A stretch of DNA of 64,000 nucleotides from an uncultured Atribacterota bacterium (GCA_964433555.1 CAYSRG010000005.1:10141-74140), one strand, 5' to 3'; positions 1-54,638 are shown, counted from the stretch's first letter. Notes: generated by a model not told the origin, from the sequence alone. A program made the numbers and translations.

Positions 1-129
1 TTAGTATATAGTCGTTGGTAAAAATTTTTTAGGTATGTTTATATTTTTCCCAAAAATAACTTTTTATAAAAACAAATTTAAATTATTAGTATAATTTAGT
101 CAGGGGAAATCTCCCCTGAAACCCCTTTA

Positions 130-460
130 TTATTAGTATTGAGTATATAGTATCGAATATCGAGTCCAAGAGAAGAGAAGAAGAGAAAATTAATTTCTTG
201 AATCTTGTCTTTCACTAAATACAAATAACTAACTACTAACACATTATCGAGCTAAGAGTAAAAAACCAAAGATAACAAAATAATATAATACTTTAATCTA
301 ATTTTTTAATTAATCTGGAAGCCATTTTGCAAATATATTGAATTTTCTCTACCATTTCCCCTTTTAGCTCTTCTCTTATATAACCTAACTCATGGGAAAT
401 AATTATTTGTACAAAATTATTTATATTTACTATATACTACATACTCGATACTCAATACAG
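130..460. repeat. ~330-bp non-coding element bounded by imperfect inverted repeats
   Basis: Outer inverted repeats gtattgagtat...cgagt (135-167) and actcgatactcaatac (443-458). Inner inverted repeats aagagaagag (171-190) and ctcttctctt (~370-385). No ORF. Confidence 0.4.
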
Positions 461-463
461 ATT

Positions 464-1195
464 TTATAAGGCAAAACGTTCACCAAGATAATATTTTCGG
501 GTTATTTCTGAACTGGCTACTTCAGAAGGATCACCAGAAGCCAATATTTTTCCATCATGCATAATATAAGTACGATCAGTAATCTTCATGGTCTCCCTAA
601 CATTGTGGTCAGTAATTAGAATACCCAGTCCCTTTTCTTTTAAGTAGCCAATAATTTCCTGAATATCATAAACCGCAATAGGATCTATGCCAGTAAAAGG
701 TTCATCCAGCAGTATAAAGGATGGTGAACTGGCCAGAGTACGTGCAATTTCTACTCTTCGTCTCTCACCACCGGAAAGCATATAGCCCTTATAATCAGCT
801 AAGTGTTTAATTTCTAACTCCTGTAACATTTTAGAACATCTTTTTTCTCTTTCGGTACGTTCTATACCAAGGGCTTCCAGAATTAACAAAATGTTTTCCT
901 CAACAGTTAATTTCCGAAAAATAGAAGGTTCCTGAGCGAGATACCCTAATCCCATCCGTGACCGTTGAAACATTGGTATGTGAGTAATATCTTTGCCTCT
1001 AAAAAACACCTTTCCCTTATCCGGACGAATTAATCCAGTTATCATATAAAAGGTAGTTGTTTTCCCGGCTCCATTAGAACCGAGTAAACCAACTACCTCT
1101 CCTCTATTGATTTCTATATTAACTTCATCAACAACTTTGCGTCTGCGATAAATCTTAACCAGTTGTTCGGTCCATATTTTTTCCAAATTTTCCAA
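464..1195 (-). CDS. lptB: LPS export ABC transporter ATP-binding protein LptB
   Basis: 243 aa. Walker A GSNGAGKTT, ABC signature LSGGERRRVEIAR. LptB-type GLGYLAQEPSIFRKLTVEEN motif. Confidence 0.85.
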   Translation of the reverse strand: MENLEKIWTEQLVKIYRRRKVVDEVNIEINRGEVVGLLGSNGAGKTTTFYMITGLIRPDKGKVFFRGKDITHIPMFQRSRMGLGYLAQEPSIFRKLTVEENILLILEALGIERTEREKRCSKMLQELEIKHLADYKGYMLSGGERRRVEIARTLASSPSFILLDEPFTGIDPIAVYDIQEIIGYLKEKGLGILITDHNVRETMKITDRTYIMHDGKILASGDPSEVASSEITRKYYLGERFAL

Positions 1196-1266
1196 ATGCT
1201 TCTCCCGAAAATTGATTGATAACTAACTGCAAGCTAATTAAATAAACCTTTATCTAAAATAATGAT

Positions 1267-1797
1267 TTATTTGCTGGAGGTAATCCTCTGAATTTCAGCA
1301 ATTACATCCTGCGTCAGATGCTCACCACCATATAAAATGACTGGGTATTCATTGAGGTCATTTCCGGTAAATACTGGAACTTCACTATTAATAATTACTT
1401 GATACTTACCTTTTTCCCCAACAGCCTTTATTGCTTGCAGGATATCTGAATTCCTTTCTGCCTGTAAAGCTTGCATCTGTGCTAATATCTTCTGTTTTAC
1501 CGGTTCCCATTCTGCATTAAATTTCTCCTCCAATTTTTTAAGTTCTGTCTCTTCCAGTCCTTTTCCTTCTTGATTGAGTTTTTCCTGCCTGGTCTGTAAT
1601 TCTGTTCTTAATTCTTGGTTTAACTGATTTATTTTTTCGGTATTAGGATGACTGGCAGTTACTTTAGCCAAACTAACATAACCAACATTCTGAGCTAAAG
1701 CACCTATGGTGAAAAAAGTTAATAAAAAAGCAATTGCTGTTAATAAAAAAGCTACTTTGTATCTGCCCACTATTCTTGCCTTCAAGTTAAAAGTCAT
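1267..1797 (-). CDS. skp: Skp/OmpH-family periplasmic chaperone
   Basis: 176 aa. N-terminal signal/TM segment, then Lys/Glu/Gln-rich coiled-coil typical of OmpH. Lies between bamA and lptB. Confidence 0.7.
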   Translation of the reverse strand: MTFNLKARIVGRYKVAFLLTAIAFLLTFFTIGALAQNVGYVSLAKVTASHPNTEKINQLNQELRTELQTRQEKLNQEGKGLEETELKKLEEKFNAEWEPVKQKILAQMQALQAERNSDILQAIKAVGEKGKYQVIINSEVPVFTGNDLNEYPVILYGGEHLTQDVIAEIQRITSSK

Positions 1798-1966
1798 ATG
1801 CTATCTTCCTCCTTAATTTATATGTTAAATACCATAGAATTTTTCAAATATAATTATTAATCAAGTATTTATACTAATACGGTTACGGTTTCTTAAAATA
1901 ACAAATAAAAACAAAAATAATTTATACTAGGTTATTCCTTAAAATTAAATATATACACATTATAAA

Positions 1967-3739
1967 TTAGAAAGTGTGACCAATGCTGAAATAAGCCTTA
2001 CCCTCCTCATCTTCTCCAAAACCATAATCAATACTGATTGGTCCCAGGAAGGTATCAAAGCGTATTCCCACTCCTTTACCAAACTTCAAATCACCTATAG
2101 TAATAGATTCACCAAAATCCCAGGCATTACCCCAATCAGCAAAGATAACTGCTTGTAAATTCTCCGCTAGAGGAAAACGATATTCAATGTTAAAAATAAG
2201 AGAAGTATCTCCTGAGAATTCTTTATAATCATAGCCCCTTATAGTGCCTAATCCTCCGACTTCGTATTTAGCAAAAGAGGGTAAAGAAGTATCACCAACG
2301 CCGACTACCATTCTCATCGCCAGTACACCCTGATTGATGGTACCGGTGATAGTGGTGTCATCTGCTCGGTCTTCTTCAAATATGTCAGTAGAAAGATAAG
2401 TACGCAAATCTAAATCATATTTACGGTAGTCATAATCTCCTCCCAGTATCCCACCAGCACTTTGAATAGAAGCAGTACCATACCATCCTTCTGTTGGATT
2501 AAATCTGTCATCTCGGGTATCGTAAATCAATATCGGTCGGAAACTATTGGTTAGTCCTTCCTGAATATTATCAGGTAACTTACCGGATATTAATTGATAA
2601 CTAGCATCCTCAGTCTTTAACTCCAAGCCAACTTTAAAGTGTTCTTTAAACTCTCGTCCAAAAGTGAGCTTACCGCCTATTCGTTCCATTTCATATTTTG
2701 AATCAATATCATCAATTTTTTTATTCACTTCCATGAAGGAATCATAAACATCTAAACCAAAAAAAGTAGGGGTATTTCCCAACCAGGGTTCATAGAAGGA
2801 AAAGCTATAAGTAGTCCTGGTACCCACTTCCAGCTTTGCCTCAATGCTCTGACCTCGTCCAAAAAGATTAGATTCTTTAATACTGGCATAGGCAAATAAT
2901 CCCTCACCTGTGCTATAACCTCCTCCACCTCCAAATAGACCGGTACTTTTTTCTTTCACCTCTATTACTACTACAATCAAGTGTTCCTGGCTGCCCGGCT
3001 CTAACCTCATGGCAACATCTTCAAAAAATCCAAGATTATAAACTTCCTGTAATGATTCTTTTACTTTACTAAAATCAAATAACTCTCCGGATTCAATATT
3101 TATTTCTCTCCTTATGACCTTATCAACTGTCTTCTCATTGCCGCTAATCTTTATTTCTTCTATTACCCCTTCAGCCAGTTTAATTAAAAGCACGCCAGTA
3201 TTCTGATTAAAATCAATTTCTTCCAGCTGAGCTAATATTAATCCTCTCTCTTTATATAATTGAGAAATTCTATCCAGGTCATTCTGTAATATCTTTTGAG
3301 AAAATACCTGTCCCTTGCTTAAGACCATAACATCTTTAATTTCCTGAACTGCTAAAATAGTACTTCCTTCAATGACAATATCATCTATAATTGCATTTTC
3401 CTTAACTTGAAAGACGACTCGATAACCATCTCGAAACGGTTCTAACTTAACCTGGACATCCTGGAAATAACCCAAATCAAAGATTGCTTTCATATCAGCC
3501 TGAACTTTATCTTTAGAAAACAGATCTCCAATATCGGAAGAAATTAGAGACACTATAAATTTGGTATCGATATGTTCATTATCGCGTACAACGATGGCAG
3601 TAATTTTCCCATTATTCTGAGCTAGTGCTATATTAAAAAATAGGAAAGGTAATAAAAAAGATATGATAAAAAATAAAAAACATTTATTTATTGTTCTATT
3701 TCTCAACTCTTTTTCCTCCTGGATATTTATTCCTCTCAA
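1967..3739 (-). CDS. bamA: outer membrane protein assembly factor BamA (Omp85)
   Basis: 590 aa. Signal peptide, POTRA-like N-terminus, C-terminal beta-barrel ending in aromatic HTF. Conserved bamA-skp arrangement. Confidence 0.8.
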   Translation of the reverse strand: MRGINIQEEKELRNRTINKCFLFFIISFLLPFLFFNIALAQNNGKITAIVVRDNEHIDTKFIVSLISSDIGDLFSKDKVQADMKAIFDLGYFQDVQVKLEPFRDGYRVVFQVKENAIIDDIVIEGSTILAVQEIKDVMVLSKGQVFSQKILQNDLDRISQLYKERGLILAQLEEIDFNQNTGVLLIKLAEGVIEEIKISGNEKTVDKVIRREINIESGELFDFSKVKESLQEVYNLGFFEDVAMRLEPGSQEHLIVVVIEVKEKSTGLFGGGGGYSTGEGLFAYASIKESNLFGRGQSIEAKLEVGTRTTYSFSFYEPWLGNTPTFFGLDVYDSFMEVNKKIDDIDSKYEMERIGGKLTFGREFKEHFKVGLELKTEDASYQLISGKLPDNIQEGLTNSFRPILIYDTRDDRFNPTEGWYGTASIQSAGGILGGDYDYRKYDLDLRTYLSTDIFEEDRADDTTITGTINQGVLAMRMVVGVGDTSLPSFAKYEVGGLGTIRGYDYKEFSGDTSLIFNIEYRFPLAENLQAVIFADWGNAWDFGESITIGDLKFGKGVGIRFDTFLGPISIDYGFGEDEEGKAYFSIGHTF

Positions 3740-3945
3740 TCATTCCTTTAATAAAAAGTTTTCACTTTTTCTATTATATAACATATCTTAAAATATCTAA
3801 ACCAATTCTAAGAAAATTATTTCAGAAAAATTATTAATTTTACCAAAATGAGATTCAGAATGGTCTATAAATATTTAAAATAGGTGGCAAGGTACCATAT
3901 AGCTTATGGCTTATGCTGCTAATTAGAATAATTCCCTCTGGTAAA

Positions 3946-6900
3946 CTAAAATTGAATATGTAATTTTTTTGCTAAATCATCAAGATAAGTATAAAAAATT
4001 GGTACCACAATAAGGGTTAAGAAAGTTGAAGATGTTAATCCTCCAATAATTGTTACAGCCATAGGGGCTCTCATTTCAGCGCCTTCCCCTGCAGCAATAG
4101 CCATCGGCAACATAGCTAAGACCGTTGTTAAAGTAGTCATTAATATTGGTCTTAAACGTATTTTTCCACCCTGAATAACCGCTTCATTACGTTCTAATCC
4201 TTTTTTCCTTAACTGATTGATATAATCTATTAGTACAATTGCATTATTTACCACAATACCAGCTAACATAATCAAACCGAGAAATGAAAGGACATTAAAG
4301 CTGATATCAGTAATTAATAGCGCCAAAATAACCCCAATCAGTGAAAAAGGAATAGAAAGAATGACTGCAAATGGAAATAATAATGATTCAAATTGGGCAG
4401 CAATAATCATATAAACTAAAAATATAGAAAGAATTAAGGCAAAGAAAAGGCTTTGGAATGACTCTATCATCTCCTCATTTTCACCCGCAAAAGTATAATT
4501 ATAACCTTCTGGTAACACAATTGCCTCCAATTTTTTCTGGGCATCCGGAATAACATGTCCCAGGAAACGACCGCTTATATTGCCTGTGACGGTAACCATT
4601 CTTTGCTGATTTTCTCTGTTTATTACCTGAGGACCGATTCCGGAGACTACTTTAGCAATTTCCTTTAGAGGAATCTGCAATCCATATCCTGAGCTTATAT
4701 ATAAATTTTCTAATTGCTGAATATTTTCTAAATCGCTTTTGTCCAAATTTACCCTGATATCAAACTGGTCTCCGCCTTCCTGATAATAACTAGCAACTTT
4801 TCCTAAAACGGCATCCTGGATATTAGTAGCAATTTGTCCAGCGCTTAAACCATATAAATTAGCCTTTTCTCTATCAATATTAATATGGAGTTCGGGTCGA
4901 ACCTCCTCAACACTACTTTTCAAATCATATATTCCCTCTACTTCACTTAATATGTCTATAATTATCTTTGCAGTATAATCTAACTCTTCAATTGAATCAC
5001 CAGTAATCTTTATAGAAAGAGGGGAGCTGGTAGAAAAAGACATTCCTTGTTCACCGATATTAATTTTTGTATCGGGATAATCACTTATTCGGCTGCGTAA
5101 ATCAGCAATAATTTCTTTGATTCCTCTTTCTCTTTCAGACTGGTCAGTTAAGCTAACCATTAGGGACCCGGAATTGTTACCACCTCCGCCCATACCCATT
5201 CCCATTCCTTCTCCACCAATACCAGTGAAGATATTTTTAACTTCAGGAATGCTCTGGGTAATTCTTTCAATATCTTCTACAACTTCCCTGGTAACCTCAA
5301 GATTCGTACCCACCGGTAAGGATATATTAATATTGAAAGAACCCTGGTCTACAGAAGGAAAAAATTCTGTCCCAATTATTGGCACGAGAAGAAAAGATAT
5401 TATTAATATTATAAAGGCAAATATGGTTACCATGCCACGATGACGTAAAGAACCTCGAATAAGATTTCCATAAATTCTATTTATAAAATTAAATAATCGG
5501 CCTCTCCCTTCAATATACTCGGTACCAACTGCACTATCAGCTTCATGATTATCATTAGCTGGATTATTATTCTTTTCCATAGACGAAGATAAAGATTTTG
5601 TCGGCTTCAGTGTTCTTCTTATCAATTTTGAAGAAAGCATGGGGATTAAAGTCAGTGCAACAAATAAAGACATAAGCAGTGAAAAGGTTATTGTTAAACC
5701 CATTGATTTAAACAATTCTCCGGCTATTCCAGAAACATAAGCTACTGGCAAAAAAACCGCGATGGTAGTCAGAGTGGAAGCTGTAATGGCTTGACTAACC
5801 TCGTTAGCACCTTCCTGAGATGCTAGTAACGCATTTTTCCCCATCTCCCGTTGTCGATAAATATTTTCCGAAACAACTATGCCATTATCAACCAGCATTC
5901 CTATTCCTAATGCCAGTCCACCGAGTGTCATCATGTTTAGCGTTAAATTGGAAAAATATAGTAGGGTAAAAGTAGAAATTACTGAAATAGGTATAGCTAA
6001 TCCGATAATAATTGTGCCACTTATGCTGCGTAAAAATAGATATAATACCAGAATAGCCAGAACAGCTCCAAAAAGGAGAGTATTGGTCACTTCAGAAATA
6101 GTTTTTTTAATGAAATCAGAAGAATCATATATATTTATAATCTGAATATCGCCCGGAAGCAGCTCTTCTATTCGTTTCAATTCATGGTTAATCCTGTTGG
6201 CAACAATTACCGTGTTTGCTCCAGATTCTTTCTGAATACTGAAGGCCACACTGGGCAATCCATTAATATAATTTATTGAATTTTTTTCTTTGAAGGTATC
6301 TGTTATTTGAGCAATATCCTTTAAATAGACTTGATTTCCCTGCAAATTAGTAATCACTACATTGCGAATATCTTCAATGCTTTCAAATCGTCCCAGGGTT
6401 CTAATTAACAAATCAATAGTACCATCACGAACAGTTCCAGCCGGTAAATTGATATTTTCACTTCTTAAAGACATAACAATTTGATCTAATGTCAACTGAT
6501 TCGCACGGATTTTTTCACTATTTAAGGAAACTAATATTTCTCTTTCTAATCCTCCACTTACTGAAGCCTGGGCTATTCCTTCCAATCTTTCCAGTCTTGG
6601 TTTAACAATATCCTGAGCAAATTTTTCCAATTCATTAAGTTCATATTGCTCTGAACCCATACCCAATATCATCATCGGCATCATAGACGGATCTGCTTTG
6701 AATATAATGGGATCACTAGCATCACTGGGGAGCATACTTTTTACCATATCTATTTTTTCTCTTATTTCCAAAGATGCAATGTCCATATCAGTTCCCCATT
6801 GAAAAGAAAGCAGTATTATTGAGCTCCCCTCCTGCGAATAGGAATTAACCGTATCAACCTGATTCATAGTACTTACGGCTTCTTCTAAGGGAATAGTAAT

Positions 6901-7086
6901 AAGCGTTTCTATTTCTTCCGGGGCAACACCTGGATAAGAAACTATAACTGCTGAAACAGGAAAGGATAAATCAGGAAGCAAATCAAGACCTAATCCCTGA
7001 TAAGAAATAATGCCAATCACAATGAGGGTAATAAACAACATTAATATAGTAACTGGTCTATTAACTGAAATTTTTGGCAAGTTCAC
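3946..7086 (-). CDS. RND (HAE1/AcrB-family) efflux transporter
   Basis: 1046 aa, 12-TM AcrB-like architecture with large periplasmic loops. Overlaps the MFP gene by 4 bp. Carries a Gly/Met-rich insertion GGEGMGMGMGGGGNNSGS. Confidence 0.85.
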   Translation of the reverse strand: MNLPKISVNRPVTILMLFITLIVIGIISYQGLGLDLLPDLSFPVSAVIVSYPGVAPEEIETLITIPLEEAVSTMNQVDTVNSYSQEGSSIILLSFQWGTDMDIASLEIREKIDMVKSMLPSDASDPIIFKADPSMMPMMILGMGSEQYELNELEKFAQDIVKPRLERLEGIAQASVSGGLEREILVSLNSEKIRANQLTLDQIVMSLRSENINLPAGTVRDGTIDLLIRTLGRFESIEDIRNVVITNLQGNQVYLKDIAQITDTFKEKNSINYINGLPSVAFSIQKESGANTVIVANRINHELKRIEELLPGDIQIINIYDSSDFIKKTISEVTNTLLFGAVLAILVLYLFLRSISGTIIIGLAIPISVISTFTLLYFSNLTLNMMTLGGLALGIGMLVDNGIVVSENIYRQREMGKNALLASQEGANEVSQAITASTLTTIAVFLPVAYVSGIAGELFKSMGLTITFSLLMSLFVALTLIPMLSSKLIRRTLKPTKSLSSSMEKNNNPANDNHEADSAVGTEYIEGRGRLFNFINRIYGNLIRGSLRHRGMVTIFAFIILIISFLLVPIIGTEFFPSVDQGSFNINISLPVGTNLEVTREVVEDIERITQSIPEVKNIFTGIGGEGMGMGMGGGGNNSGSLMVSLTDQSERERGIKEIIADLRSRISDYPDTKINIGEQGMSFSTSSPLSIKITGDSIEELDYTAKIIIDILSEVEGIYDLKSSVEEVRPELHINIDREKANLYGLSAGQIATNIQDAVLGKVASYYQEGGDQFDIRVNLDKSDLENIQQLENLYISSGYGLQIPLKEIAKVVSGIGPQVINRENQQRMVTVTGNISGRFLGHVIPDAQKKLEAIVLPEGYNYTFAGENEEMIESFQSLFFALILSIFLVYMIIAAQFESLLFPFAVILSIPFSLIGVILALLITDISFNVLSFLGLIMLAGIVVNNAIVLIDYINQLRKKGLERNEAVIQGGKIRLRPILMTTLTTVLAMLPMAIAAGEGAEMRAPMAVTIIGGLTSSTFLTLIVVPIFYTYLDDLAKKLHIQF

Positions 7087-8369: not shown

Positions 8370-8666
8370 ATAATAAATTCCTCTCTTAGTCTTAATAGCA
8401 TAATTTTATTCAGTAAATTGTTACCACTTGCCATTATCTTTTAGTTATACAATGGAAATTCTTCCCCTTGAAAATCTCTAAAATTATTCTTCAGCTCGAT
8501 ATGAATTAATCCTTTTTTACTGAATATGTTTAAGCAATATAACTTCTTACTTTGCATATCTGTAAAATATTCAGTTATTATATCATAATCTTTCTGCTAA
8601 AACTATTTTGCTAGAGTATTAATAAATGCTAAATAAGTAATAAATATATAGTTAAACAATAATTTT

Positions 8667-10010: not shown

Positions 10011-10036
10011 TAAAAATGAAAGTGATCTTTTTTATA

Positions 10037-10435: not shown

Positions 10436-10644
10436 TAAAAAAGGTTCTCCTTCCTGATCTGTCCAAACAGCCTTTTAATGTCTACCTATTATTTTATTTT
10501 AAGATAATTATAATTACATTATATTAAAAAAGTTTTAATAACATTTAAATTAAATATAAAATTTTTATAAAAATATTGGCAATATTCTCAATCATATTAT
10601 ATCAAGGATATTCAAGGGGAATCCTTCCCCTTGAGAACCCCGTT

Positions 10645-10760
10645 ACTCAGTATATAGTATATCGTAGTGAATTACTATAGATATAGTATACCGTACTAAG
10701 TATATTGTATATCGTCAATTTAGTCGTCAGTAGTTGGTAGTTAGCATTTGGTATCCAGTA
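10645..10760. repeat. three tandem imperfect ~20-bp AT-rich direct repeats (AGTATATAGTATAYCGTA) plus GTAGTT-rich tail
   Basis: Units at 10649-10666, 10676-10696 and 10699-10718. Same core recurs at 135-167, 428-458 (reverse complement), 19790-19830 and 63077-63100. Confidence 0.65.
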
Positions 10761-10814
10761 TTTAACTATTTAATTAACCAACATATAGGTAACACTTTTG
10801 ATTCAGGACATAGG

Positions 10815-16758: not shown

Positions 16759-16999
16759 AATCCGTTTACCTCCGCAGTAATTCTTTTTCTAAATTAATGA
16801 TTTTACTTAAGATTATCAGAGGAGTGAACTCCCCTGACTGCCTCTATCCCTTCTTTTGATACATATTGATTTTCTTTAAAATTAACATAATACCTGGTTA
16901 AAATATTTTTAAAATATTTATCTTAGAGAGCATCTGGTTTTTGTAATTCTGATACTCTAAAATATTATAAAATAATTATCCAGTTGACTTGTTCAGTTA

Positions 17000-19506: not shown

Positions 19507-19580
19507 TGGCTGGGGTGGAAGGATTCGAACCTCCGATGAGGGAGCCAAAGTCCCTTGCCTTACCGCTTGGCTACACCCCA
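19507..19580 (-). tRNA. tRNA-Gln (anticodon TTG)
   Basis: Reverse complement folds as a 74-nt cloverleaf. Anticodon loop CUUUGGC gives UUG. Ends ACCCCAGCCA as in E. coli tRNA-Gln; CCA encoded. Confidence 0.85.
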
Positions 19581-19789
19581 TTCAATTAATGTTCAAAGGG
19601 AATGCTTCCCCTTGAGAATTTCTTAAATTAACCTCAAATTTAATATTGGTCAATCCTAAGACCTGTCTTTAATGTCTTTTCTTTGATAAATCTAATTTTT
19701 ACTTAAAGTGCAATAGTTATAACAATCACACTATCCTAAAATACAACGGAGCAACAGAGCATATATTATTTCTTGTTCAAAATATTTTT

Positions 19790-19830
19790 ATAGTAGTATC
19801 GAAATTAAAGAGTATTTCCGATACTACTAT
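19790..19830. repeat. long imperfect hairpin of the TATAGTA(G)TATCG repeat family
   Basis: atagtagtatcgaaat / atttccgatactactat inverted repeat with 8-nt loop. Shares the core with repeats at 135-167, 428-458, 10645-10718 and 63077-63100. Confidence 0.5.
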
Positions 19831-19972
19831 ATGCTCATTTCTTATTAGATTTTTTAGTCAGGAGAATCACTTATTGTTGCCCTTCTTATTCTCCTGACCA
19901 TTTTAAATTAAATTTAGCCTACTAATATTATAATAAACCAATCAATATTTTAAGCAAACTAAATCTAATTTC

Positions 19973-20320: not shown

Positions 20321-20619
20321 TTGCTTACACCGCCTTTTCGTTTTTTGTTTTTTCTGTTATCTAGTTACTATTTACAATACCACACTTTAAAATTCAGTTA
20401 ATATCTAAGCTGATTACAAATAATATTTATTATTTTCCAACTTTCAACAAAATAATCTCCCACTGCTACATATTTTCATTTACCTCCTGTTATATCGCAT
20501 TTTAGTATGTAATATATCATCAATCCTAAAGTTAATAGCGTTGGGTTTTCTTGTTCCTTCAGATTCCCAAGAAGAATTTTTCTCCTTGAGAAGTCCTAAA
20601 TAGATCAGGCCTTTCTGTT

Positions 20620-21956: not shown

Positions 21957-22203
21957 GAACTTTTACCTCAAAATTATCAGGGGAGCAAGCTCCCTATAAA
22001 CCTCTCTATCTATTTCTTTCATCTATTTTTCCCTAATACTCTACCTGGAAATCTTGTATTTAATACTTTATCATAATCACAAATCTTTTGCCCTAAGGTA
22101 CAAAAAATTATAGTAAATATATACAATATCTTATAATCTAATCTAGCATATTTTGTTCCTTATCTAAAAACTTATGTTATAAATATCTTTGATGGAAAAT
22201 TAA

Positions 22204-30546: not shown

Positions 30547-30890
30547 GTATAGAGCCTCTTTTAGTTAAGATTTTATTATAATAATATATAATTAATTTTC
30601 TGCTTTTCAGGAATATAAATTAACAGACATTCACCTGTATAACAGGTGATTTAAGATACTTAAACCGTTTTATTTAGTCATGAACACCTTAAAAGAAGGT
30701 AATCTTCAATACTGAAATAAATTATTTCCTTTGAGGTGTATCAGGGGTACCTTCCCTGAATACCTTGTCTTAAAAATATTATATGATAAATTCCATTTAT
30801 ACCTGAGTTATAATAATTTTAGAAATTATATACCCTTAGAATCAAATATAGCATTATTGTACCTTATTTAGTTTATTTAAAAAAGATTAT

Positions 30891-30931
30891 TTCATAGTAG
30901 GGGAAATTCAAAAAATTTCCCCTACTATGAA
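30891..30931. repeat. perfect 18-bp-stem hairpin / palindrome with GGGGA core
   Basis: ttcatagtaggggaaatt-caaaa-aatttcccctactatgaa. Lies in the 730-bp divergent intergenic region between mreB and the permease gene. Confidence 0.7.
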
Positions 30932-31276
30932 ATAATGATAACATGTTTTCTAAAATACAAAAAAATAATATTTCTTTCTACCGTAAATGATTTTTTATGT
31001 TATTATATTTTTAGACTATATTTCAAAGCCTCAAATGGATCTGGCGTAATTATATAATACATTCCATTTGTTTAGCAATCCAACTTTGACAATTTCATGA
31101 TTTTTTCCAGGCAAAAAATACCAGAACCATTATTTGCCTGATATTTTTAGTAAATATTTATTTTGAAAATAATAGCTAATAAGGCAAACTTATTAATAAA
31201 AATTATCTCAGATCAAGAGAGCAAGGTAAGATTCTATGGTCGAACCACAATCGATTCTCAGGTGGTGTTCTGATTC

Positions 31277-34385: not shown

Positions 34386-34644
34386 CGTTTATCCTTTCTT
34401 TAGAGAACATGGCAAACTCTTTTAGTTTATCACTATATTTTACCGAATTGGTTTACAGTTTTTAGTTTTTAGTTTCAGAACCGGATAAATAAGCAAGAAA
34501 AATAATATTCCATATTTCACTATTTTTTATTATTGCCGCAGTGTTCTAATAAATTAGAAACACATCAGTGAATATTACTGGTATTGATTTATTTAAACTG
34601 ACTACTGTAATTAAACTTTTTTAATTATTCCTATATTTATAATA

Positions 34645-38285: not shown

Positions 38286-38477
38286 CTTTTCCCCGAAATA
38301 TATTTAAGTACAATGGTTTTTGGTTAAAGGTTTTTGGTTAAAATAGTTAGCATTTAATATTTTTTGTCTTTGATACCCATTATTACTTTTAGTTCTATTT
38401 TATTAAATATTAAAATCTGATACTATATTTTTCTTACACTATACATTATACGATATGAAGTTGATTAAAGAATGGCA

Positions 38478-40474: not shown

Positions 40475-40511
40475 ATTCATTTAATTATTTCTGTTCTATA
40501 TGTTTTATATG

Positions 40512-41384: not shown

Positions 41385-41417
41385 CTTAGTATCCTCCTTT
41401 TTTGATAATATTTATTT

Positions 41418-44192: not shown

Positions 44193-44223
44193 TTTAATTT
44201 TATTTCAATCCTTTCTTTCAATA

Positions 44224-47253: not shown

Positions 47254-47275
47254 AATTAATCTACTCCTTATTAAA

Positions 47276-47773
47276 CTATTTGTATCTCTCTAAAATTGCG
47301 TCTAATTTACTGGGAGTTAACCGACCATGAACTTCATTGTCAACCATAATAACTGGAGCCATTCCGCATGACCCAAAACAACGTTGTTCTCCTAAAGTAA
47401 ATCTCAGATCTTCTGTTGTTTCGCCTATCTTTATACCCAATTTATTTTCTAATGCCTCCAGAATCTTTTTAGCACCTCTGACATAACAAGCTGTTCCCAT
47501 ACAGATTGTAATAGTGTGCCGACCTACAGGCTGTGTTTTGAAATAAGAATAAAATGTAACTACTCCAAATACTTCACTAACAGAAATATTCATCTCCTCA
47601 GCAACGAATTCTTGGACTTCTGAAGGTAAATAACCAAACAAGGATTGTGCTTTATACAAGACTGGGATTAAATAGCCCTTTTTCTCTTTATTATCTCTAA
47701 TAAAACTCCCTAATTCCTGGTACTTTTCTTCAACAGTGCATTCATCATTTTTAATGATAGCTGTTTCACTCAT
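47276..47773 (-). CDS. NuoE/HydC-like thioredoxin-fold [2Fe-2S] subunit
   Basis: 165 aa. Cx4C (ICMGTAC) and Cx3C (CFGSC). Confidence 0.8.
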   Translation of the reverse strand: MSETAIIKNDECTVEEKYQELGSFIRDNKEKKGYLIPVLYKAQSLFGYLPSEVQEFVAEEMNISVSEVFGVVTFYSYFKTQPVGRHTITICMGTACYVRGAKKILEALENKLGIKIGETTEDLRFTLGEQRCFGSCGMAPVIMVDNEVHGRLTPSKLDAILERYK

Positions 47774-48141
47774 TATTTTTTCCCCTTTGAAAATAAATAT
47801 TTTTCTACTACTCTATTATTTAAAACATGTTCATTAAAAATTATCCTTGCTGCCTCTACATCAACATTGCGATAAGTTACCGGTCTATCTTCTTCTACAT
47901 ATACATGAATCATAGGTTCTTGGGCGCAAAAACCAAAACATCCTGAAGCAGTAATAATAATATCCGTTTTTTTGCTTTTTTCAATCAATTCCAAGAATTC
48001 ATTCATTGTTTCTCTAGCCCCAGCAGCTATTCCACAACTACCCATTCCTACTACTATCTTGACACGATGCTTTCCCGATCTAAGCTTTAAATCTTTCTTT
48101 ACCTTCTCCCGCATTATCTTTAGTTCTTCAAAATTTTTCAT
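47773..48141 (-). CDS. small thioredoxin-like ferredoxin-fold protein (HydD-like; only 3 Cys)
   Basis: 122 aa. GSCG ... GCFGFC. Resembles the N-terminal domain of HydB. Confidence 0.5.
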   Translation of the reverse strand: MKNFEELKIMREKVKKDLKLRSGKHRVKIVVGMGSCGIAAGARETMNEFLELIEKSKKTDIIITASGCFGFCAQEPMIHVYVEEDRPVTYRNVDVEAARIIFNEHVLNNRVVEKYLFSKGKK

Positions 48142-48199
48142 AGCTCCTCCTCTCCAAACATTAATTTATATTGAATAATATTAATACCTTAAAAATAAG

Positions 48200-48736
48200 T
48201 TACCTAATATCTATTTTTTTAAATTCTTTTTGTGATACCTCATAAATATGTTTTCTTATATTTATATAATTTTTTAATCCCTTAGCAATTTCATTTCGTA
48301 ATTCCAGGAAATCTAAAATCAGTTCCTCTCTATCCTCTTTGGTAATAAATAATTTAAGATTAATCTCCGGCCAGGCAAAAAATATATCTGTAAAAGTCCA
48401 GGCCAAATCACCAAAGGGTTTGGCATCAATATGAGACATGTCTATCTTAAATTGAAGAGCAGTCCCTCCTTTTTTATTTATCCTTCTTATCTTTAAATAT
48501 CCGCCGGTATCCTCTGCCGTTCTTTTTAATAAGGGGAGACCCAATCCAACCCTTCTGGTCTTCCTGGAAGTTATAAAAGGATCTAATACTTCCTGCCCAA
48601 TAATTCCTTTCCCATTATCGGAAATGCTACAAAAAAAAATACTTTTAGTATAAGTTATTTTCACAATAACTTCATTAGCCCCGGCATTAACTGAATTTTC
48701 TATAATATCAAAGAAATGGTCCGCTATATTTTTCAT
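48200..48736 (-). CDS. GHKL/histidine-kinase-like ATPase domain protein
   Basis: 178 aa. N-box ENSVNAG, G1 DNGKGI, G2 GLGLPL. Confidence 0.65.
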   Translation of the reverse strand: MKNIADHFFDIIENSVNAGANEVIVKITYTKSIFFCSISDNGKGIIGQEVLDPFITSRKTRRVGLGLPLLKRTAEDTGGYLKIRRINKKGGTALQFKIDMSHIDAKPFGDLAWTFTDIFFAWPEINLKLFITKEDREELILDFLELRNEIAKGLKNYINIRKHIYEVSQKEFKKIDIR

Positions 48737-49487
48737 TTCCGGTCTTCCTTAGAAAATCTTGCAATGAGCTAAAATCTATTATATGATTATCATCTTTTAC
48801 TTCCAAAAAAAATGTTCCAATATCTTCCAAAAAGTGGCTATCTGAACCGCTAATTACTGGGAATCCTTCCAGTAAGTCTCCAATTTCATATTTCTTATTT
48901 ATCCATTCAAATCTTGATACTTCTACTGCATCAAAATTACTAGTAGGATCTAAAAAACCTATCTGGCTCATTAAACTGCAATAATCTCTATTAATATGAG
49001 CCGGTATTGCTATTCCACCCAGAAAATGAATGTAGTCAATTAACTCATCTAAGCTGATTTGTAAAGCATTTTGCCTTAACATATAATCTATTTCAACTAT
49101 CTCTCCTTTTTCATCATAGATTAGCTGGTCACCAAAAAAAGAAGGTTTATTTTTCATTTTTGGCAGACAATCACTTATCTTCTTCTCCATCTCTCTCATA
49201 CTATATTCATCTGGGAAATAACCCAATATATGAATCTCTTCCCGGGTAGTCAGCTCAATCCCGAGAATAATATTAACTGAGCTTATTTTATTAATTTTTC
49301 TAATTAAAATCGAATGGGCAACCGCATTGTGATCAGTAATAGCAATTAAGTTTAGTCCGCTTTTTTCTGCCTTTTTCAATATGTTTTGTGGTGACATAAT
49401 ATTTTCCGCGCACGCTGAAAGAGAAGAGTGAATATGTAAATCAATCTTGATCAGATTTGCCTCCCAGCATCTGGTACAATAGACCAC
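48708..49487 (-). CDS. PHP-domain metal-dependent phosphoesterase
   Basis: 259 aa. IDLHIHSSLS...ITDHN His motifs of the PHP family. Confidence 0.75.
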   Translation of the reverse strand: MVYCTRCWEANLIKIDLHIHSSLSACAENIMSPQNILKKAEKSGLNLIAITDHNAVAHSILIRKINKISSVNIILGIELTTREEIHILGYFPDEYSMREMEKKISDCLPKMKNKPSFFGDQLIYDEKGEIVEIDYMLRQNALQISLDELIDYIHFLGGIAIPAHINRDYCSLMSQIGFLDPTSNFDAVEVSRFEWINKKYEIGDLLEGFPVISGSDSHFLEDIGTFFLEVKDDNHIIDFSSLQDFLRKTGNEKYSGPFL

Positions 49488-49785
49488 ATATTTGAAAAGA
49501 ATTTTTTTCAGTTCTCAATAGATTAATCTGTTCTTCCCTGGCTTTTTCTATCAATTCCTGGTTTATTTCTACATTATTGGTAAAGATAATTGCCCTTATA
49601 TCCTTGATCAGCGCTACAGCTATACTATTTTTATGTGCTTGGATAGTAATCCATACACTATCATTGCTGGCATGGGCAATAACATCTGACATTAAATCTC
49701 CACAATAACCTGTTTTGATTTCCTCATCTGAACAGAATACAATCTTCTCTAAGGAACATCTATTAATAATCTGGCTTAATTTCAT
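49441..49785 (-). CDS. DRTGG-domain protein
   Basis: 114 aa, DRTGG-like fold (GDLMSDV...). Paired with the CBS gene. Confidence 0.55.
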   Translation of the reverse strand: MKLSQIINRCSLEKIVFCSDEEIKTGYCGDLMSDVIAHASNDSVWITIQAHKNSIAVALIKDIRAIIFTNNVEINQELIEKAREEQINLLRTEKNSFQICGLLYQMLGGKSDQD

Positions 49786-49787
49786 CT

Positions 49788-50720
49788 CTATCCTCCTATA
49801 TGGATAACTGCTTTTAAAATAGTACCGGTTTCCATAGAAGATTCTAATTCTAGATGATCAGCGCATTTTTTTATATTGGGTAAACCCATGCCTGCACCAA
49901 ATCCTAAAGCCCTGATCTGTTCAGAAGCAGTTGTAAAACCCGGTTTCATTGCTTCTTCTATATCCGGAATACCTGGACCATAATCAACGGCAGTAATAAT
50001 AATACTATTCTGTTCCAATTCTACTGAAATATATCCCCCTAAGGAATGGATACTGATATTCATCTCTGCCTCATAGCAAATAATGGCAACTCTTCGCATA
50101 ATCTGTTTATCTATGGTCATTTTTTGTAAATAAGTTCTTATGATACTGGCTACTCTGCCAGCATTATCAAAGTCAGCTTTTTTGACTTCAAAACGAAGTG
50201 GCTTCTGTGGAGTATTCTTAATTAAGGTATCGGATAGCTGATAATTTCTGTTTTCTTTTTGTTCCACTTTCTCGGCAATGGTTTGAATAGTTAGCAGCAG
50301 TCTATTTAAAATATCTCCCATAGTTATGATACCAACTATTTTACGGGAATGGACATTCCCTGTTACCGGCAAACGACCAAATTTATATCTTTCAAACTTT
50401 TTTATAGCTGAAACCAAAGAATAATTTTGAGGAATGGTTATCACATCTTTAGTCATATAATCTTTTACCGTATCGTTCACATAATCTTCATCCAGAGCAG
50501 TAATTACATTATCAATACTGACAATACCAATAATATTTTTCTGTTCATCCAGGATGGGAACTCCTGAAATTCTATTTTGTTTCAAAGATAATTGAATCTC
50601 ACGAAAGGTAGCCTGCTCACCAAAAAATATTACCTTACTGGTCATAGCATCTTTCACTTTTAACTCATAAACCAGCTCATTGGCTAAAGTTAATTTTTCT
50701 CTGGAATGTAAAATTGTCAT
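49788..50720 (-). CDS. CBS-pair + GHKL ATPase domain protein
   Basis: 310 aa. Two CBS motifs, C-terminal HATPase-like G-boxes (GPGIPD, GFGAGMGL). Confidence 0.7.
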   Translation of the reverse strand: MTILHSREKLTLANELVYELKVKDAMTSKVIFFGEQATFREIQLSLKQNRISGVPILDEQKNIIGIVSIDNVITALDEDYVNDTVKDYMTKDVITIPQNYSLVSAIKKFERYKFGRLPVTGNVHSRKIVGIITMGDILNRLLLTIQTIAEKVEQKENRNYQLSDTLIKNTPQKPLRFEVKKADFDNAGRVASIIRTYLQKMTIDKQIMRRVAIICYEAEMNISIHSLGGYISVELEQNSIIITAVDYGPGIPDIEEAMKPGFTTASEQIRALGFGAGMGLPNIKKCADHLELESSMETGTILKAVIHIGG

Positions 50721-51064
50721 TTCTTCTCTTCACTAATAATTGCCTCAACAATTGCTCGACAGGCATCAAACATTGTTTTGGAGGTCATTAGAAGTGGGAT
50801 ACGGTGGGAACGGGCTAGACCAATTGCTTCCTGTTCAGGAGCTTTCCCCCTCACAAAAACCACACCTACCCCTCCGGCAATCTCAGCGGTTCTTACCACC
50901 TGCTGAGAGGTTAATCCAGTTAATAATAAAAAATCGTCCTTGCTTAAAGCAAGAACATCACTTAATAAATCACTGGCTGCAAATTCCTCAATATTCTGGT
51001 CTAGCAAGTTTTCTCCAGTCAAGACCTCAGCATCTAATATGTTGACAATATCTTTTATTTTCAT
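50717..51064 (-). CDS. DRTGG-domain protein
   Basis: 115 aa, second DRTGG paralog. First gene of the FDH operon. Confidence 0.55.
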   Translation of the reverse strand: MKIKDIVNILDAEVLTGENLLDQNIEEFAASDLLSDVLALSKDDFLLLTGLTSQQVVRTAEIAGGVGVVFVRGKAPEQEAIGLARSHRIPLLMTSKTMFDACRAIVEAIISEEKK

Positions 51065-51163
51065 AATATACTCTCATGAATATAAAGTTTAAATAAATAG
51101 AAAAGGTAATAACTAAAATAAATAAAAATTAATTCTTATATTACTTTCTACCAAAAGATAAAT

Positions 51164-51181
51164 TTGTGAAAAATATCACAA
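51164..51181. promoter_or_regulatory. Rex operator (Rex box)
   Basis: TTGTGAA-AAAT-ATCACAA, one mismatch to the Firmicutes Rex consensus TTGTGAAnnnnTTCACAA. Lies between rex and the first gene of the FDH operon. Confidence 0.6.
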
Positions 51182-51317
51182 AGCACACCAAGTCATTTTA
51201 TCACATGCCCTTAATATATGTCAAACTCGTCCTTAAATTTTTGGCCATAAATTATTTCGCCCTCTAGTTTTATTTTAAATACATCACTCCTGTTGGCAAA
51301 TAATAATTTTACAAAAT

Positions 51318-51911
51318 TTAAGATAAGTAATAGACCAGCTTTTCAAGTTCAATAGCAATATCAATATGTTTAATTGATATTCTCCGGGGATGTTTAATAC
51401 TAATGGGAGCAAAATTAAGTATTGACCTGACTCCTCCAGCTATCATCTGGTCAGCTACTTCCTGAGCCGATTGGGAAGGTACTGTAATAATACCAATTCG
51501 TATTTTCTGCTCTTTGAGAAATTTTTCCATGTCCTGGATATGTCTTATCCTGATATGGCCAATTTTTTTACCTACTTTAGCCATATCATTATCAAATACT
51601 GCTTTTATGATGAAGCCTCTTTTGGAGAATCCTTTATAACGAAGGAAGGCAGTCCCTAAATTGCCAGCACCAGCGAGCACTAAATTCCATTTTTGATTTG
51701 ATTTCAATATCTCCTTTAATTTATTAAATAATTCCAGGACAGGATAACCAATTCCCCTTTTCCCAAATTCACCAAAATAAGAAAAGTCTTTTCTAATTTG
51801 ATGGGGATTAATACCAGTTATATCTGACAGTCTGGACGAGGAAATTGTGGAAAACTCATTAACTCTCTTTGCTTCAATCAAAGATTCTAAGGTTCTATGA
51901 TAAATTGACAA
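51318..51911 (-). CDS. rex: redox-sensing transcriptional repressor Rex
   Basis: 197 aa. Winged-helix ISS..L....G....QIRKDFSYFGEFG, Rossmann GAGNLG NADH-binding domain. Confidence 0.85.
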   Translation of the reverse strand: MSIYHRTLESLIEAKRVNEFSTISSSRLSDITGINPHQIRKDFSYFGEFGKRGIGYPVLELFNKLKEILKSNQKWNLVLAGAGNLGTAFLRYKGFSKRGFIIKAVFDNDMAKVGKKIGHIRIRHIQDMEKFLKEQKIRIGIITVPSQSAQEVADQMIAGGVRSILNFAPISIKHPRRISIKHIDIAIELEKLVYYLS

Positions 51912-52014
51912 TCGATCGATAGTAGCTTGCGGAATGTACTTTTTACTAATCTTAATAAGACATTATCCTTTCTAAATGTTGTATCTCTGAAAGACTGTCT
52001 GAATACTCTTATTG

Positions 52015-52659
52015 TTATCTCTGGGTAATCCAGGTTTCATAACCCAATTTCTTTAATTGCTGAGAAGCTTCTTCAGCTTGTGCTCGCAAGGGGTAGGCAC
52101 CTATCTGCACTTTAAAAGCTTTATTATGTTCTATAACAAAGGTCTGAAATCCATGATTTTCGATTTCTCTGGCTAAACCCCTGGCATTGCTCTCAATGGA
52201 AAAGTAACCTACCTGAATGGTATAAACTGTACCTGATGGAGTTACTGTCTCAGTCTGACTGACAGAAACTTCTTGTTTTGGCGGTGTTGGTGTAGTCACA
52301 GTCTGTCGGGGTACTGAATTACTTTCCTTCTGAGCCATTTGCTCCGTTGTTTGGCTTGAAACTTCTCTTTCTACTGGCTTTTGTGCTATAGATGTGTCAG
52401 ATTCAGTCGGTCTTTCACCAGTAGGGATATCCTGAGTAATTAACTGATCAATTTCCCTTTGCTCTTCTTCACCAACTTTAACCATTTCCTCTCTAGAAAT
52501 AGTTTGCTGTTCTGATTCTAATTCCTCTGGAGGCAAGAAACTCTTTTCCCTTGCCATATAAAAGGCAACGGATAAGATAACTATCGCTCCAACTAAGATA
52601 ATGAGGGTTTCCAGATTACTCCTGGTTTTTCTTTTATAAATACGTCTGGTTCTTCTCAA
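52015..52659 (-). CDS. SPOR-domain protein (TTG start)
   Basis: 214 aa. N-terminal TM, low-complexity Pro/Thr/Gln linker, C-terminal SPOR domain. Confidence 0.6.
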   Translation of the reverse strand: MRRTRRIYKRKTRSNLETLIILVGAIVILSVAFYMAREKSFLPPEELESEQQTISREEMVKVGEEEQREIDQLITQDIPTGERPTESDTSIAQKPVEREVSSQTTEQMAQKESNSVPRQTVTTPTPPKQEVSVSQTETVTPSGTVYTIQVGYFSIESNARGLAREIENHGFQTFVIEHNKAFKVQIGAYPLRAQAEEASQQLKKLGYETWITQR

Positions 52660-53160
52660 AGATATGCCCCTCCTTTAATTAAAATAGTCAGGGAGTATTC
52701 CCCTACCATCCTTCTGTCTATTTTTTAAATCCATATTGATTTTTTGTCAAACTTTACCCGATAATCTTGTTAAAAATTCTGTTTTGAAAACATTCAGGAT
52801 AAATCATTCAAACAACAAAAGGAAATTATATCTTTATTATAATATAATATTACAATCCTTTGTACTTTACTGCAACTTTTTATAATCTTTGCTCCAATAG
52901 CAAATATTATTGTTTAATTCGACCCCAATATTATGTTATTTCAATATCCTATTTGAGTTATGTTCTATAAAACATTCTTCAATTACACCAATGATGTACT
53001 TTTTTACAGCTTTATTCATACAGGACTACATAGTACAATAACCATGATCTACATGCCCTTATTTTTATGATATTATATTAGCATAGACTCGATGATCATA
53101 TGAGTTAAGAACTTAATTATAAAATATTTAAATTTTTAAAGATTAAGGAATGCATTTTCA

Positions 53161-53607
53161 GTGTCCAAAAATTGTCTATTAGGGATAGGTAACTCTTTAA
53201 GGTCTGATGATGGTGCTGGTTCTTTTCTTGCCCAACATTTCAATCATCATAACTGGATGGTGATAGACGGAAAATCGGCTCCAGAAAACTACACTTCAGT
53301 TATTAAAAACATTCATCCTGAACTGTTGGTAATTATCGATGCTGTTGAAATGAATCTTATTGCAGGTAGTATTAGAATAATCCCCGTAGAAAAAATTATT
53401 TCCCTGCAACTTTCCACTCATTACCTGTCACTGTCCTATCTCATAGAATACTTGGCTCCTGATTGCCATAAAATCATACTTATTGGTATTCAACCTCTTT
53501 CCACTGAAATGAGTGAAAATTTAAGTAAACCAGTGCTAAAGGCTTGCTATCAACTTATAAACTTACTGAAAAAGAATCAACTTAAGGCTATTCCAATTTT
53601 CACCTAA
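53161..53607 (+). CDS. [NiFe]-hydrogenase maturation endopeptidase (HycI/HyaD family)
   Basis: 148 aa. LLGIGNSLRSDDGAGSFLAQHF...IDA motifs of hydrogenase maturation proteases. Convergent with the Mbh operon. Confidence 0.8.
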   Translation: MSKNCLLGIGNSLRSDDGAGSFLAQHFNHHNWMVIDGKSAPENYTSVIKNIHPELLVIIDAVEMNLIAGSIRIIPVEKIISLQLSTHYLSLSYLIEYLAPDCHKIILIGIQPLSTEMSENLSKPVLKACYQLINLLKKNQLKAIPIFT

Positions 53608-53932
53608 TCCTTTCTCCTTTTACTCTCCTATTGACTAGAAAGAATTATAAATCTCAAACTGACTTAATGTATAGGCAAGCACATACCTATATCACTGATT
53701 GCTTTAAGAACTACTATACTAGACTAAACTTTTATGAAATTGCTTTTTATTCTCCTCTTTTCTTTTTTTGCAATATTTTATTTAATCTTAATAATCTAAG
53801 TAACACAACTTACCACTTTGAACATAGAGTATAAAATAGTCAATTAATCTATACCAATTTTTGTGGTAAAGTCATTTCATCTAACCATAAGACAGTCTTT
53901 CAAGATGTTAGTAATGGCTATATAAAAATCAA

Positions 53933-53975
53933 ATACTAAGATACTTCATAAAAATGTAGCATCTTAGTATTTTAT
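53933..53975 (-). terminator. putative intrinsic terminator of the Mbh operon
   Basis: 12-bp stem aaatactaagat/atcttagtattt with 18-nt loop. On the minus strand it is followed by GATTTTTATAT. Confidence 0.45.
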
Positions 53976-54016
53976 AAAACAATCATTATACTTCATCTTA
54001 TCTTATTTAATTTAAA

Positions 54017-54424
54017 TTATTGGACAATCATCTCTGAATCAAAACGATCTTCATTTGCTAGAAGAAAATTTTCCGACATACTCAGACAATTGACCGGACA
54101 AACATCATTACACTGTGCACAAAATATACAGCGGTCAATTCTGATTTTAATCTTTTTTTCTTCCGGAAGAAATTCAATCGCCCTGGAAGGACATACTCTA
54201 ACACATAAGCGACATCCGATACATTTTTCCCTATCATATACTATTTTCCCTCTAAATTTCTCCGGTACTGTTACCGGTGAGTTTATTTTCACCTGGCCAT
54301 CCTGGACTTTTTTAATAAGATCAGTAACAGTTGTTTGGCTGGGATAATATTTCACCGGGAAACAATTTGTTGCAGGTCTATGAAAAAGTTGTTTGATTAA
54401 CTCAAACACTATTGGTGTCGGCAT
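54017..54424 (-). CDS. mbhN: Mbh subunit N: NuoI-like 2x[4Fe-4S] ferredoxin
   Basis: 135 aa. CIGCRLCVRVCP and CIFCAQCNDVCP motifs. Confidence 0.85.
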   Translation of the reverse strand: MPTPIVFELIKQLFHRPATNCFPVKYYPSQTTVTDLIKKVQDGQVKINSPVTVPEKFRGKIVYDREKCIGCRLCVRVCPSRAIEFLPEEKKIKIRIDRCIFCAQCNDVCPVNCLSMSENFLLANEDRFDSEMIVQ

Positions 54425-54638
54425 TCTTTTTCACCTCATTTCATTTATATTACCCGTAATCAGGGGAGATAGACCTTGAAACCACTTAAGTAAATATGTT
54501 TAAAAAAATTTCTTTCATCTTATAATCAGTATATCCAGGGAAATTATTCCCCTTAGGAATATCTGAACACTTCTTCTATATGGATTATGTAAATAAATTC
54601 GCTTTAGCAAATATCAAAACTTCAAAGAAATTTCGATA

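Follow-up and report, generated by a model that had tools for sequence, protein, structure and literature searches.

Short GC-rich palindromes recur in the intergenic regions of a 64,000-nt stretch of DNA from an uncultured Atribacterota bacterium (CAYSRG010000005.1:10141-74140), the whole of which we refer to as the window. We propose that these palindromes are copies of a high-copy, modular, non-coding intergenic repeat family, a new REP/BIME/BOX-like member, and we put the probability of this reading at roughly 0.55. The constant module of the repeat, which we call H, has been seen so far only in one clade of uncultured Atribacterota. There it is a lineage-restricted, oriented, modular repeat with rapid positional turnover and recombination between copies. 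Atribacterota (OP9/JS1) are subsurface bacteria of unusual cell biology that are abundant and have hardly any cultured members; we know of nothing described about their non-coding DNA, and we found no description of repeats in Atribacteria in the full-text literature.

H is 35-40 nt long and consists of a G-run flank, RGGGGTT(C), a GC-rich stem-loop with a stem of 8-10 bp, and an (A/T)TATC(TTG) tail. Two versions of the stem-loop co-exist: in the alignment of copies, A1 reads GAGGGGTT TCAGGGGA-NAYY-TCCCCTGA (A/T)TATCTTG and A2 reads CAGGGG(T/A)TC TCAAGGGGAA-GNA-TTCCCCTTGA ATATCTTG. In the aligned A1 and A2 copies, 99.5% of stem cells are paired and two stem pairs differ between the versions by double substitutions. 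Variation is confined to the loop, with stem and flanks near-invariant, and the A2 loop is invariably G-N-A. Read in the direction of the genes, which is the minus strand for nearly all genes of the window, the hairpins have the form TCA(A)GGGGA..loop..TCCCC(T)TGA, and the copies at sites 100 and 10612 have ..ATACTATATACT..GGGGTT(C) in common on the 5' side. The predicted RNA fold of the stem-loop has a free energy of about -13 to -17 kcal/mol.

We searched for H with profile hidden Markov models (nhmmer, models a1 and a2) built from oil-reservoir metagenome copies only, with window copies excluded, and with a covariance model, CM R2, trained in the same way on foreign copies; the training set of a further covariance model, CM R1, included some window copies. 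An exact scan for the 19-base A2 core TCTCAAGGGGAAGNATTCCC was run on Joint Genome Institute (JGI) metagenome contigs. The core is present in at least 118 JGI metagenome stretches, many contigs carrying 2-4 copies, and the profiles gave 225 non-overlapping matches in 567 kb, with approximately 210 covariance-model matches in 485 kb. Among the matches listed, 27 of the 94 whole-contig copies (~29%) lie within 130 nt of a contig end, where 6.1 would be expected, and this excess is the signature of a repeat that breaks assemblies. Beyond the window, 103 of 108 exact-core copies (~95%, again among the matches listed) are intergenic. The loci that carry the repeat have a median GC content of 34%, and the window has the same value. 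The LDZP-LDZU accession series belongs to oil-reservoir metagenomes from the Alaska North Slope, two samples of which contain 12-30% Atribacteria (PMC4725000). Neither the A1 nor the A2 core matched any viral contig in IMG/VR, and a viral origin was rejected for that reason.

Copies of H are oriented with respect to genes. The flanking gene is co-oriented with H in a ratio of 68:14 upstream and 68:11 downstream, and in spacers between co-directional genes the orientation of H matches that of the genes in 51 cases against 1. In divergent spacers, H faces the adjoining gene (four times in L103, and in L070, L074 and at 30733-30767 in the window). H also lies close to tRNAs: in four of ten tRNA transcription units, the distance from the end of H to the mature 5' end of the leading tRNA is 9, 10, 12 or 28 nt (window 19593-19615 with 19507-19580; L088 3468-3543; L105 2150-2244; L071 675-750). 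At such distances, H would belong to the pre-tRNA leader that RNase P removes.

H is also arrayed. Neighbouring copies up to 350 nt apart have the same orientation in 96 cases and opposite orientations in 3, such that arrays are head-to-tail, with spacings of 69-306 nt that cluster at 77-84 and 120-155 nt. Upstream of H stands one of several leader modules: W (ATACT/ACGTAAT heptads), X, or Z, the last made up of a CCTCTCCCTTAGAAGGGAGAGG hairpin and AAGGTGAGGGTGATAAT. Most often, an AT-rich second hairpin and a U-rich stretch come after H. These leaders and the second hairpin recur beside H in many loci, and gene-proximal copies of H occur without the second hairpin. The W module is G-poor and rich in TAnnnT hexamers; it recurs in the oil-reservoir Atribacterota loci L031, L103 and L088, and an inverted copy lies at 430-458 of the window, right after the stop codon of an ABC-ATPase gene. 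A further module, CTGAGGA..CTACTACCCAA..TCCTCAGGATC, is located after H in five loci that represent at least two species (L047 3435, L066 1169, L073 2116, L090 1387 and L094 534); it looks like a structured RNA, and L094 gave no Rfam match. A CRISPR array was considered as an explanation and rejected, given that the spacings are irregular and that the "spacers" are themselves repeated modules.

For the window itself, flanking sequence was added to give 81.8 kb. The gene order is spoVG-glmU-prs-ctc-pth-pfk-mfd, followed by a Mrp/Mbh-type hydrogenase cluster, and 12.3% of the window is intergenic (43 spacers, 7,849 nt). The foreign-trained profiles recover seven window sites at E<0.05. Four others (54460, 16816, 21977 and 52689) have E-values of 0.13-0.81, yet these are the next-best matches in the whole window, and the covariance model trained under the same scheme agrees with the profiles on the top window matches. 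All 11 sites fall within the intergenic 12%, as the initial annotation had claimed for its copies. They are listed here together with their companion modules.

80-97, minus strand: AT-only second hairpin, AAATTAT-ACTA-ATAATTT, after the A1 copy at site 100; L088 and L033 show this module pairing too.
94-126, minus strand: A1-type copy, AAAGGGGTT + TCAGGGGA-GATT-TCCCCTGA + CTAA, hairpin at 100-119; nhmmer a1 E=1.3e-9, CM R2 E=9e-7; an identical second copy lies 132 nt farther downstream, outside the window (L025 11199-11236).
127-163, minus strand: W leader module (ATACT-type heptads), directly 5' of the A1 copy at 94-126; the same module precedes H in oil-reservoir loci.
8446-8478, minus strand: decayed A2-type copy, TTTTCAAGGGGAAGAATTTCCATTG; nhmmer a2 E=1.3e-4, CM R1 18.2 bits (copy outside the training set).
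10606-10641, minus strand: A2-type copy, GGGGTTC + TCAAGGGGAA-GGA-TTCCCCTTGA + ATATCC, hairpin at 10612-10634; nhmmer a2 E=1e-14, CM R2 E=8e-6; 180 nt past the mfd stop codon, with its end 6 nt upstream of the TG in the conserved mazG promoter element TGaTATAAT.
10642-10716, minus strand: W leader module (TATAC/ATACT repeats), 5' of the A2 copy at 10606-10641.
16809-16837, minus strand: diverged hairpin, TCAGGGGAGT-TCAC-ACTCCTCTGA, in the prs/ctc spacer, 57 nt upstream of the ctc start; marginal (E=0.24); folds as RNA at -17.3 kcal/mol (z -4.4); L005 and L006 lack it in the same spacer.
19589-19618, minus strand: A2-type copy with loop GCA, hairpin at 19593-19615; nhmmer a2 E=2e-8; ends 12 nt before the mature tRNA-Gln 5' end, with a promoter-like TTGACC-17-TAATTT just upstream; absent from L005.
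19791-19829: second hairpin (AT-rich module), of the same kind as that at 80-97 and those of the oil-reservoir arrays.
20568-20598, minus strand: weak, AT-shifted A2-like copy, TCAAGGAGAA-AAA-TTCTTCTTGG, upstream of spoVG; nhmmer a2 E=0.02, CM R1 13.6 bits, E=0.78; new, and not among the copies annotated initially.
21969-21996, minus strand: diverged A1-like copy, TAGGGAGC-TTGC-GCTCCCCTGA, 20 nt upstream of the ksgA/rsmA ATG; marginal (E=0.28); only a vestige in L005.
30733-30767, plus strand: A1-type copy, TTTGAGGTGTA + TCAGGGG-TACC-TTCCCTGA + ATACCTTG; nhmmer a1 E=3.3e-4; CM R1 25.6 bits on the plus strand versus 18.6 on the minus strand; faces the plus-strand CitMHS gene in a divergent spacer.
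52681-52704, minus strand: diverged short copy, GGTAGGGGA-ATAC-TCCCTGACTAT; marginal (E=0.81); CM R1 21 bits (copy in the training set); 29 nt upstream of a SPOR-domain gene and downstream of a TTGACA-17-TAAAAA site.
54457-54483, minus strand: diverged copy in the intercistronic spacer between mbhM and mbhN, 35 nt ahead of the start of the mbhN-like ferredoxin gene; marginal (E=0.13).
54534-54564, orientation ambiguous: diverged copy, AAGGGGAATAATTTCCCTGG, in the mbhM-mbhN spacer; nhmmer a2 match at 54537-54564, E=0.03 on the plus strand and 0.16 on the minus strand; CM R1 20.5 bits (copy outside the training set).

A further A2 copy lies 41 nt upstream of rpoN. The ten hairpins cited in the initial annotation are all present as described, and its observation that copies sit directly 5' of gene starts is borne out at ksgA, the SPOR gene and the mbhN-like gene, to which tRNA-Gln can be added. 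The extended string that it reported in three copies is the reverse complement of the A2 signature TTCTCAAGGGGAAG, with the reported coordinates off by 1-2 bases. The hairpin that it placed at 30891-30931 with a perfect stem is real and larger, spanning 30886-30936 with 23 pairs; we reject it as a family member, because it has no counterpart in 485 kb of related loci. The mazG promoter (10596-10605, minus strand) is an extended -10 element, TGaTATAAT, kept as TGgTATAAT in L005 (~14800), and in the window H occupies the place where its -35 element would be.

Comparison with relatives reveals rapid turnover. The nearest relatives of the window's L25/Ctc protein in the genome collection are from two Atribacterota metagenome-assembled genomes, L005 (88% identity) and L006 (84%), whose genes have ~78% nucleotide identity to the window. 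H is missing from all four orthologous spacers of L005 and L006, and the covariance model scores nowhere in their 23.6 kb. Five other loci are orthologues of the window, with identities of 72-81%: L031, L078, L081, L102 and L106. In its pfk-mfd spacer, L106 carries an A2 copy; the window has only a canonical terminator there. The strains L085 and L097 (90% identity) have a gene-proximal Z+H in common, with a different loop, and differ by whole modules farther out. Relative to L073, L094 contains one extra 134-nt unit bounded by identical second hairpins, which argues for unequal recombination or slippage rather than target-site duplication. At one site with the same flanks, L031 has A1 and L078, 91% identical to it, has A2, pointing to conversion or replacement. 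From the 134-nt indel and the A1/A2 swap, we infer that local turnover would proceed through recombination or gene conversion between copies. Seeding of new spacers would need a hairpin-specific activity, such as a putative HUH/Y1-type enzyme acting on single-stranded DNA.

Several observations weigh against reading H as a selfish or semi-domesticated repeat of the REP/BIME/BOX type. No cognate transposase could be tied to the repeat in ~590 kb. No target-site duplication, as a MITE would leave, or clean insertion boundary was seen in comparisons of filled and empty sites, in which the only clean indel is that between L073 and L094, the other pairs being too diverged to read. In the window's own population, no H site varies among seven near-identical contigs (99.9% identity), and four of the window copies are statistically marginal. 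The near-invariance of stem and flanks, alongside a variable loop, could reflect functional constraint instead of selfish spread. The orientation bias may stem from replication rather than transcription, because the genes are almost all co-oriented; none of the tandem spacers on the minority strand carried H, and the exception in L103 is explainable by inversion of a block. Finally, stem mismatches are as often A:C (31) as G:T (30), such that no selection specifically on the sense-strand RNA is visible.

H might instead be part of a true REP/REPIN-RAYT system, in which a domesticated Y1 transposase, its single-copy gene lying elsewhere in the genome, would cut the hairpins out and paste them in as single-stranded DNA. 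Short extragenic palindromes in high copy with conserved 5' and 3' flanks are what such a system would look like, and as DNA the hairpin has a predicted stability of -8 to -10 kcal/mol. Moreover, the G-N-A loop of A2 is of a type that can form very stable DNA triloops, although a C-G closing pair is favourable for these (PMC3201870) and in H the loop is closed by A-T. The head-to-tail arrangement (96:3), with no inverted doublets, argues against such a system, and the orientation of copies in divergent spacers is that of the local gene, not that of the contig's majority strand. A search of all open reading frames in ~590 kb with a hidden Markov model of 80 IS200-type TnpA proteins detected only a pseudogene; a RAYT could easily be missed in ~0.6 Mb because it would be present in single copy. 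The pseudogene, an IS200-type tnpA with one frameshift and one stop codon, lies beside an H array (L103 10613-11010, minus strand). Its intact relatives (L149 1501-1944, L153 829-1272) have a left-end hairpin, CCACCTTC..GAAGGTGG, and a right-end hairpin, CCACCTGC..GCGGGTGG, that are unrelated to H. IS200 was rejected as the cognate transposase on this basis, and the IS200-type tnpA is a separate mobile element of the same community. Altogether, we consider a REPIN-RAYT system unlikely. Somewhat less doubtful, yet still improbable, is the idea that H and its leaders constitute a portable, sense-specific RNA unit: a mobile promoter-leader cassette, with W, X or Z as promoter and H as 5' stem-loop; multicopy small-RNA mini-genes of ~60 nt, when closed by the AT-rich hairpin and U-rich tail; or a site for an RNA-binding protein or RNase. 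Consistent with this idea, the stem and flanks are near-invariant while the loop base is free, orientation is strictly sense, each copy in a divergent spacer points to its own gene, the second hairpin is missing from gene-proximal copies, and H ends 9-12 nt before tRNA 5' ends. At tRNA-Gln, H begins within a few nt of the start predicted from TTGACC-17-TAATTT, at the SPOR gene it begins ~10 nt after the start predicted from TTGACA-17-TAAAAA, and in the W, X and Z modules -10-like hexamers precede the G-run by 3-15 nt. However, the leader modules have poor -35 elements and the distance of the -10-like hexamer differs from module to module, for which reasons we rejected a sigma-70 promoter within H or its leaders. 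At mazG and ctc, H lies upstream of a conserved -10 element and so outside the downstream transcript; stems show no bias of G:U over A:C; a hairpin with a T-rich tail is no commoner after H than on the opposite strand; and there is no Rfam match. Rfam 15 detected only six tRNAs in the window at the gathering threshold, and only spurious miRNA matches at E<=1 in four array-rich loci. If H were nonetheless such a unit, Atribacterota would start, cap or process transcripts with it, tRNA precursors included, and the invariant stem and the GGGGUU and AUAUC flanks would be the recognition target of a dedicated protein.

The remaining explanations fare worse, and a role of H as terminator or operator is not likely. 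An intrinsic or U-tract-independent terminator would account for the GC-rich stems that stand 160-360 nt beyond the mfd, prs, spoVG and ABC ATPase stop codons, with no canonical terminator between, and for the AT-rich hairpin and U-rich tail that follow H in arrays. Nonetheless, the window hairpins have no T-run after H on either strand, canonical terminators are present elsewhere in the window, and the terminator-like sites of the window do not include H save for one weak call (52705-52689). Moreover, some copies are found in divergent spacers, others as close as 20-35 nt to a downstream start codon or 9-12 nt to a downstream tRNA, and a hairpin with a T-rich tail follows H in 40 of 126 cases compared to 58 of 126 on the opposite strand, leaving termination of upstream genes very improbable. 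The initial annotation also suggested a shared protein-binding site, which we take here in the sense of an operator for a dimeric regulator and its regulon. Although H is palindromic and lies upstream of several genes, the span from G-run to C-run is not fixed (13-16 nt), there are hundreds of copies in tandem arrays beside unrelated genes, and the site is missing at the orthologous genes of L005 and L006; we therefore abandon that suggestion, which we hold to be even less probable than termination. Least probable of all is that H is a chance product of purine-rich spacers in an AT-rich genome. In the window, the bare heptamer CAGGGGA is found 10 times where 6.0 +/- 2.6 are expected, and generic GGG/CCC hairpins 4 times where 2.3 +/- 1.5 are expected, so neither is enriched and the core motif on which the initial annotation relied is not in itself a signal. 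The signal is carried by the paired, flanked unit, and the exact-core scan, with its conserved flanks, and independent profiles with E-values down to 1e-14 have already refuted an artefact of composition.

Other candidate functions were tried and rejected. A CsrA-type GGA loop is found in about half of the listed A2 copies and in no A1 copy. A mini-ORF or leader peptide running through H would have an ATG or TTG in frame in ~64% of A1 copies, but ~22% have TAG there and no A2 copy has such a start. At L031 8180-8110 (reverse strand) and L078 3626-3560, the Z module consists of the hairpin, AAGGTGAGGGTGATA and ATG AGG GGT TTC AGG GGA ... CCC TGA, which reads as a strong ribosome-binding site and a nine-codon ORF closing at the TGA of the hairpin; this is not general across copies. 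A DNA uptake sequence was rejected, as 230 of 258 arm 9-mers are inside hairpins and all five in the 82-kb contig are intergenic.

Returning to H as a REP/BIME/BOX-type repeat, its sense orientation inside 5' leaders, tRNA leaders and intercistronic spacers implies that it must be transcribed. Most plausibly, the RNA stem-loop would act as a passive structural block, which could stop exonucleases, or as a processing mark at RNA ends. H would behave as a selfish or semi-domesticated element of the REP/BIME/BOX type.

Three further features of the window's spacers are distinct from H. The hairpin at 30886-30936, in the divergent mreB/CitMHS spacer, is nearly perfect, AT-rich and 23 bp long, with a GGGGAAAT/ATTTCCCC core and a T-run after it on the minus strand, and may serve an unannotated small transcript as terminator or attenuator. 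Just past spoVG (19857-19898, minus strand) there is a long-range hairpin, GTCAGGAGAAT..ATTCTCCTGAC, which, unlike H, is kept in L005 (6884-6960); it is probably the spoVG terminator or a 3' structure. G-poor simple repeats (CTAAAAACTAAAAACTG, CCAAAAACCTTTAACCAAAAACC and TAGTCGTTAGTCGTTGG) in long spacers (window 34456-34472 and 38315-38337, minus strand; L005 14880-15200) form a second, unexplained class of intergenic repeat.

For the genomics of Atribacterota, H matters in three ways: it fragments metagenome assemblies, it fills and rapidly remodels intergenic regions, and it offers a lineage marker and a handle for strain typing.

H works like REP/BIME, BOX and MIRU repeats, yet it lacks the inverted doublets that define REPINs and the alternation that defines BIMEs, and no RAYT was found for it in ~590 kb. 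For comparison with REP/BIME and REPIN-RAYT systems of Enterobacteria and Pseudomonas we used Bertels and Rainey (2011; PMC3116915) and Messing et al. (2012; PMC3479197). Like these, H is an imperfect palindrome of 20-40 nt with conserved flanks and hundreds of extragenic copies, forming a mosaic with other conserved motifs; it is lineage-specific and positionally unstable, and would be co-transcribed with its neighbours. The initial annotation's description of the palindromes as REP/BIME-like is sound in this respect, for they are high-copy and extragenic and lie in a repeat mosaic. The likeness does not extend to arrangement: copies of H are head-to-tail and strongly sense-oriented, whereas REPINs are inverted and BIMEs alternate. 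Furthermore, the 5' flank is GGGGTT rather than the GTAG of REP, and copies are commonly placed immediately before a start codon or a tRNA, with others in divergent spacers. The hosts belong to the phylum Atribacterota. With the ends of IS200/IS605 elements and with their miniature derivatives, the PATEs, H shares the potential for subterminal-type hairpins recognised as single-stranded DNA and strand-specific insertion, and a tnpA pseudogene adjoins an H array; the end hairpins of the resident IS200 elements are nonetheless of unrelated sequence.

BOX elements of Streptococcus pneumoniae are modular repeats of the form boxA-boxB(n)-boxC. As in BOX, the modules of the H family are non-coding and intergenic, comprise few conserved boxes in variable number, are presumably transcribed, include predicted stable hairpins and have no transposase of their own. 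Sequence and host differ, and BOX is bounded by defined end modules, whereas H alternates with alternative linkers in open-ended arrays. MIRUs of Mycobacterium are tandem intercistronic repeats of 40-100 bp, oriented with the operon. They resemble H in that short units form direct tandem arrays, lie within one transcription unit between its genes and keep a fixed orientation relative to transcription. By contrast, MIRUs are not palindromic hairpins and carry small ORFs that couple translation of the flanking genes, whereas H has no consistent ORF (an NTG start in ~64% of A1 and in none of A2). Given that its sense orientation, head-to-tail arrays and placement ahead of tRNAs and start codons are unlike REP/BIME, H is a useful case for testing whether repeats of this kind are selfish and nothing more, or have come to serve RNA-end biology.

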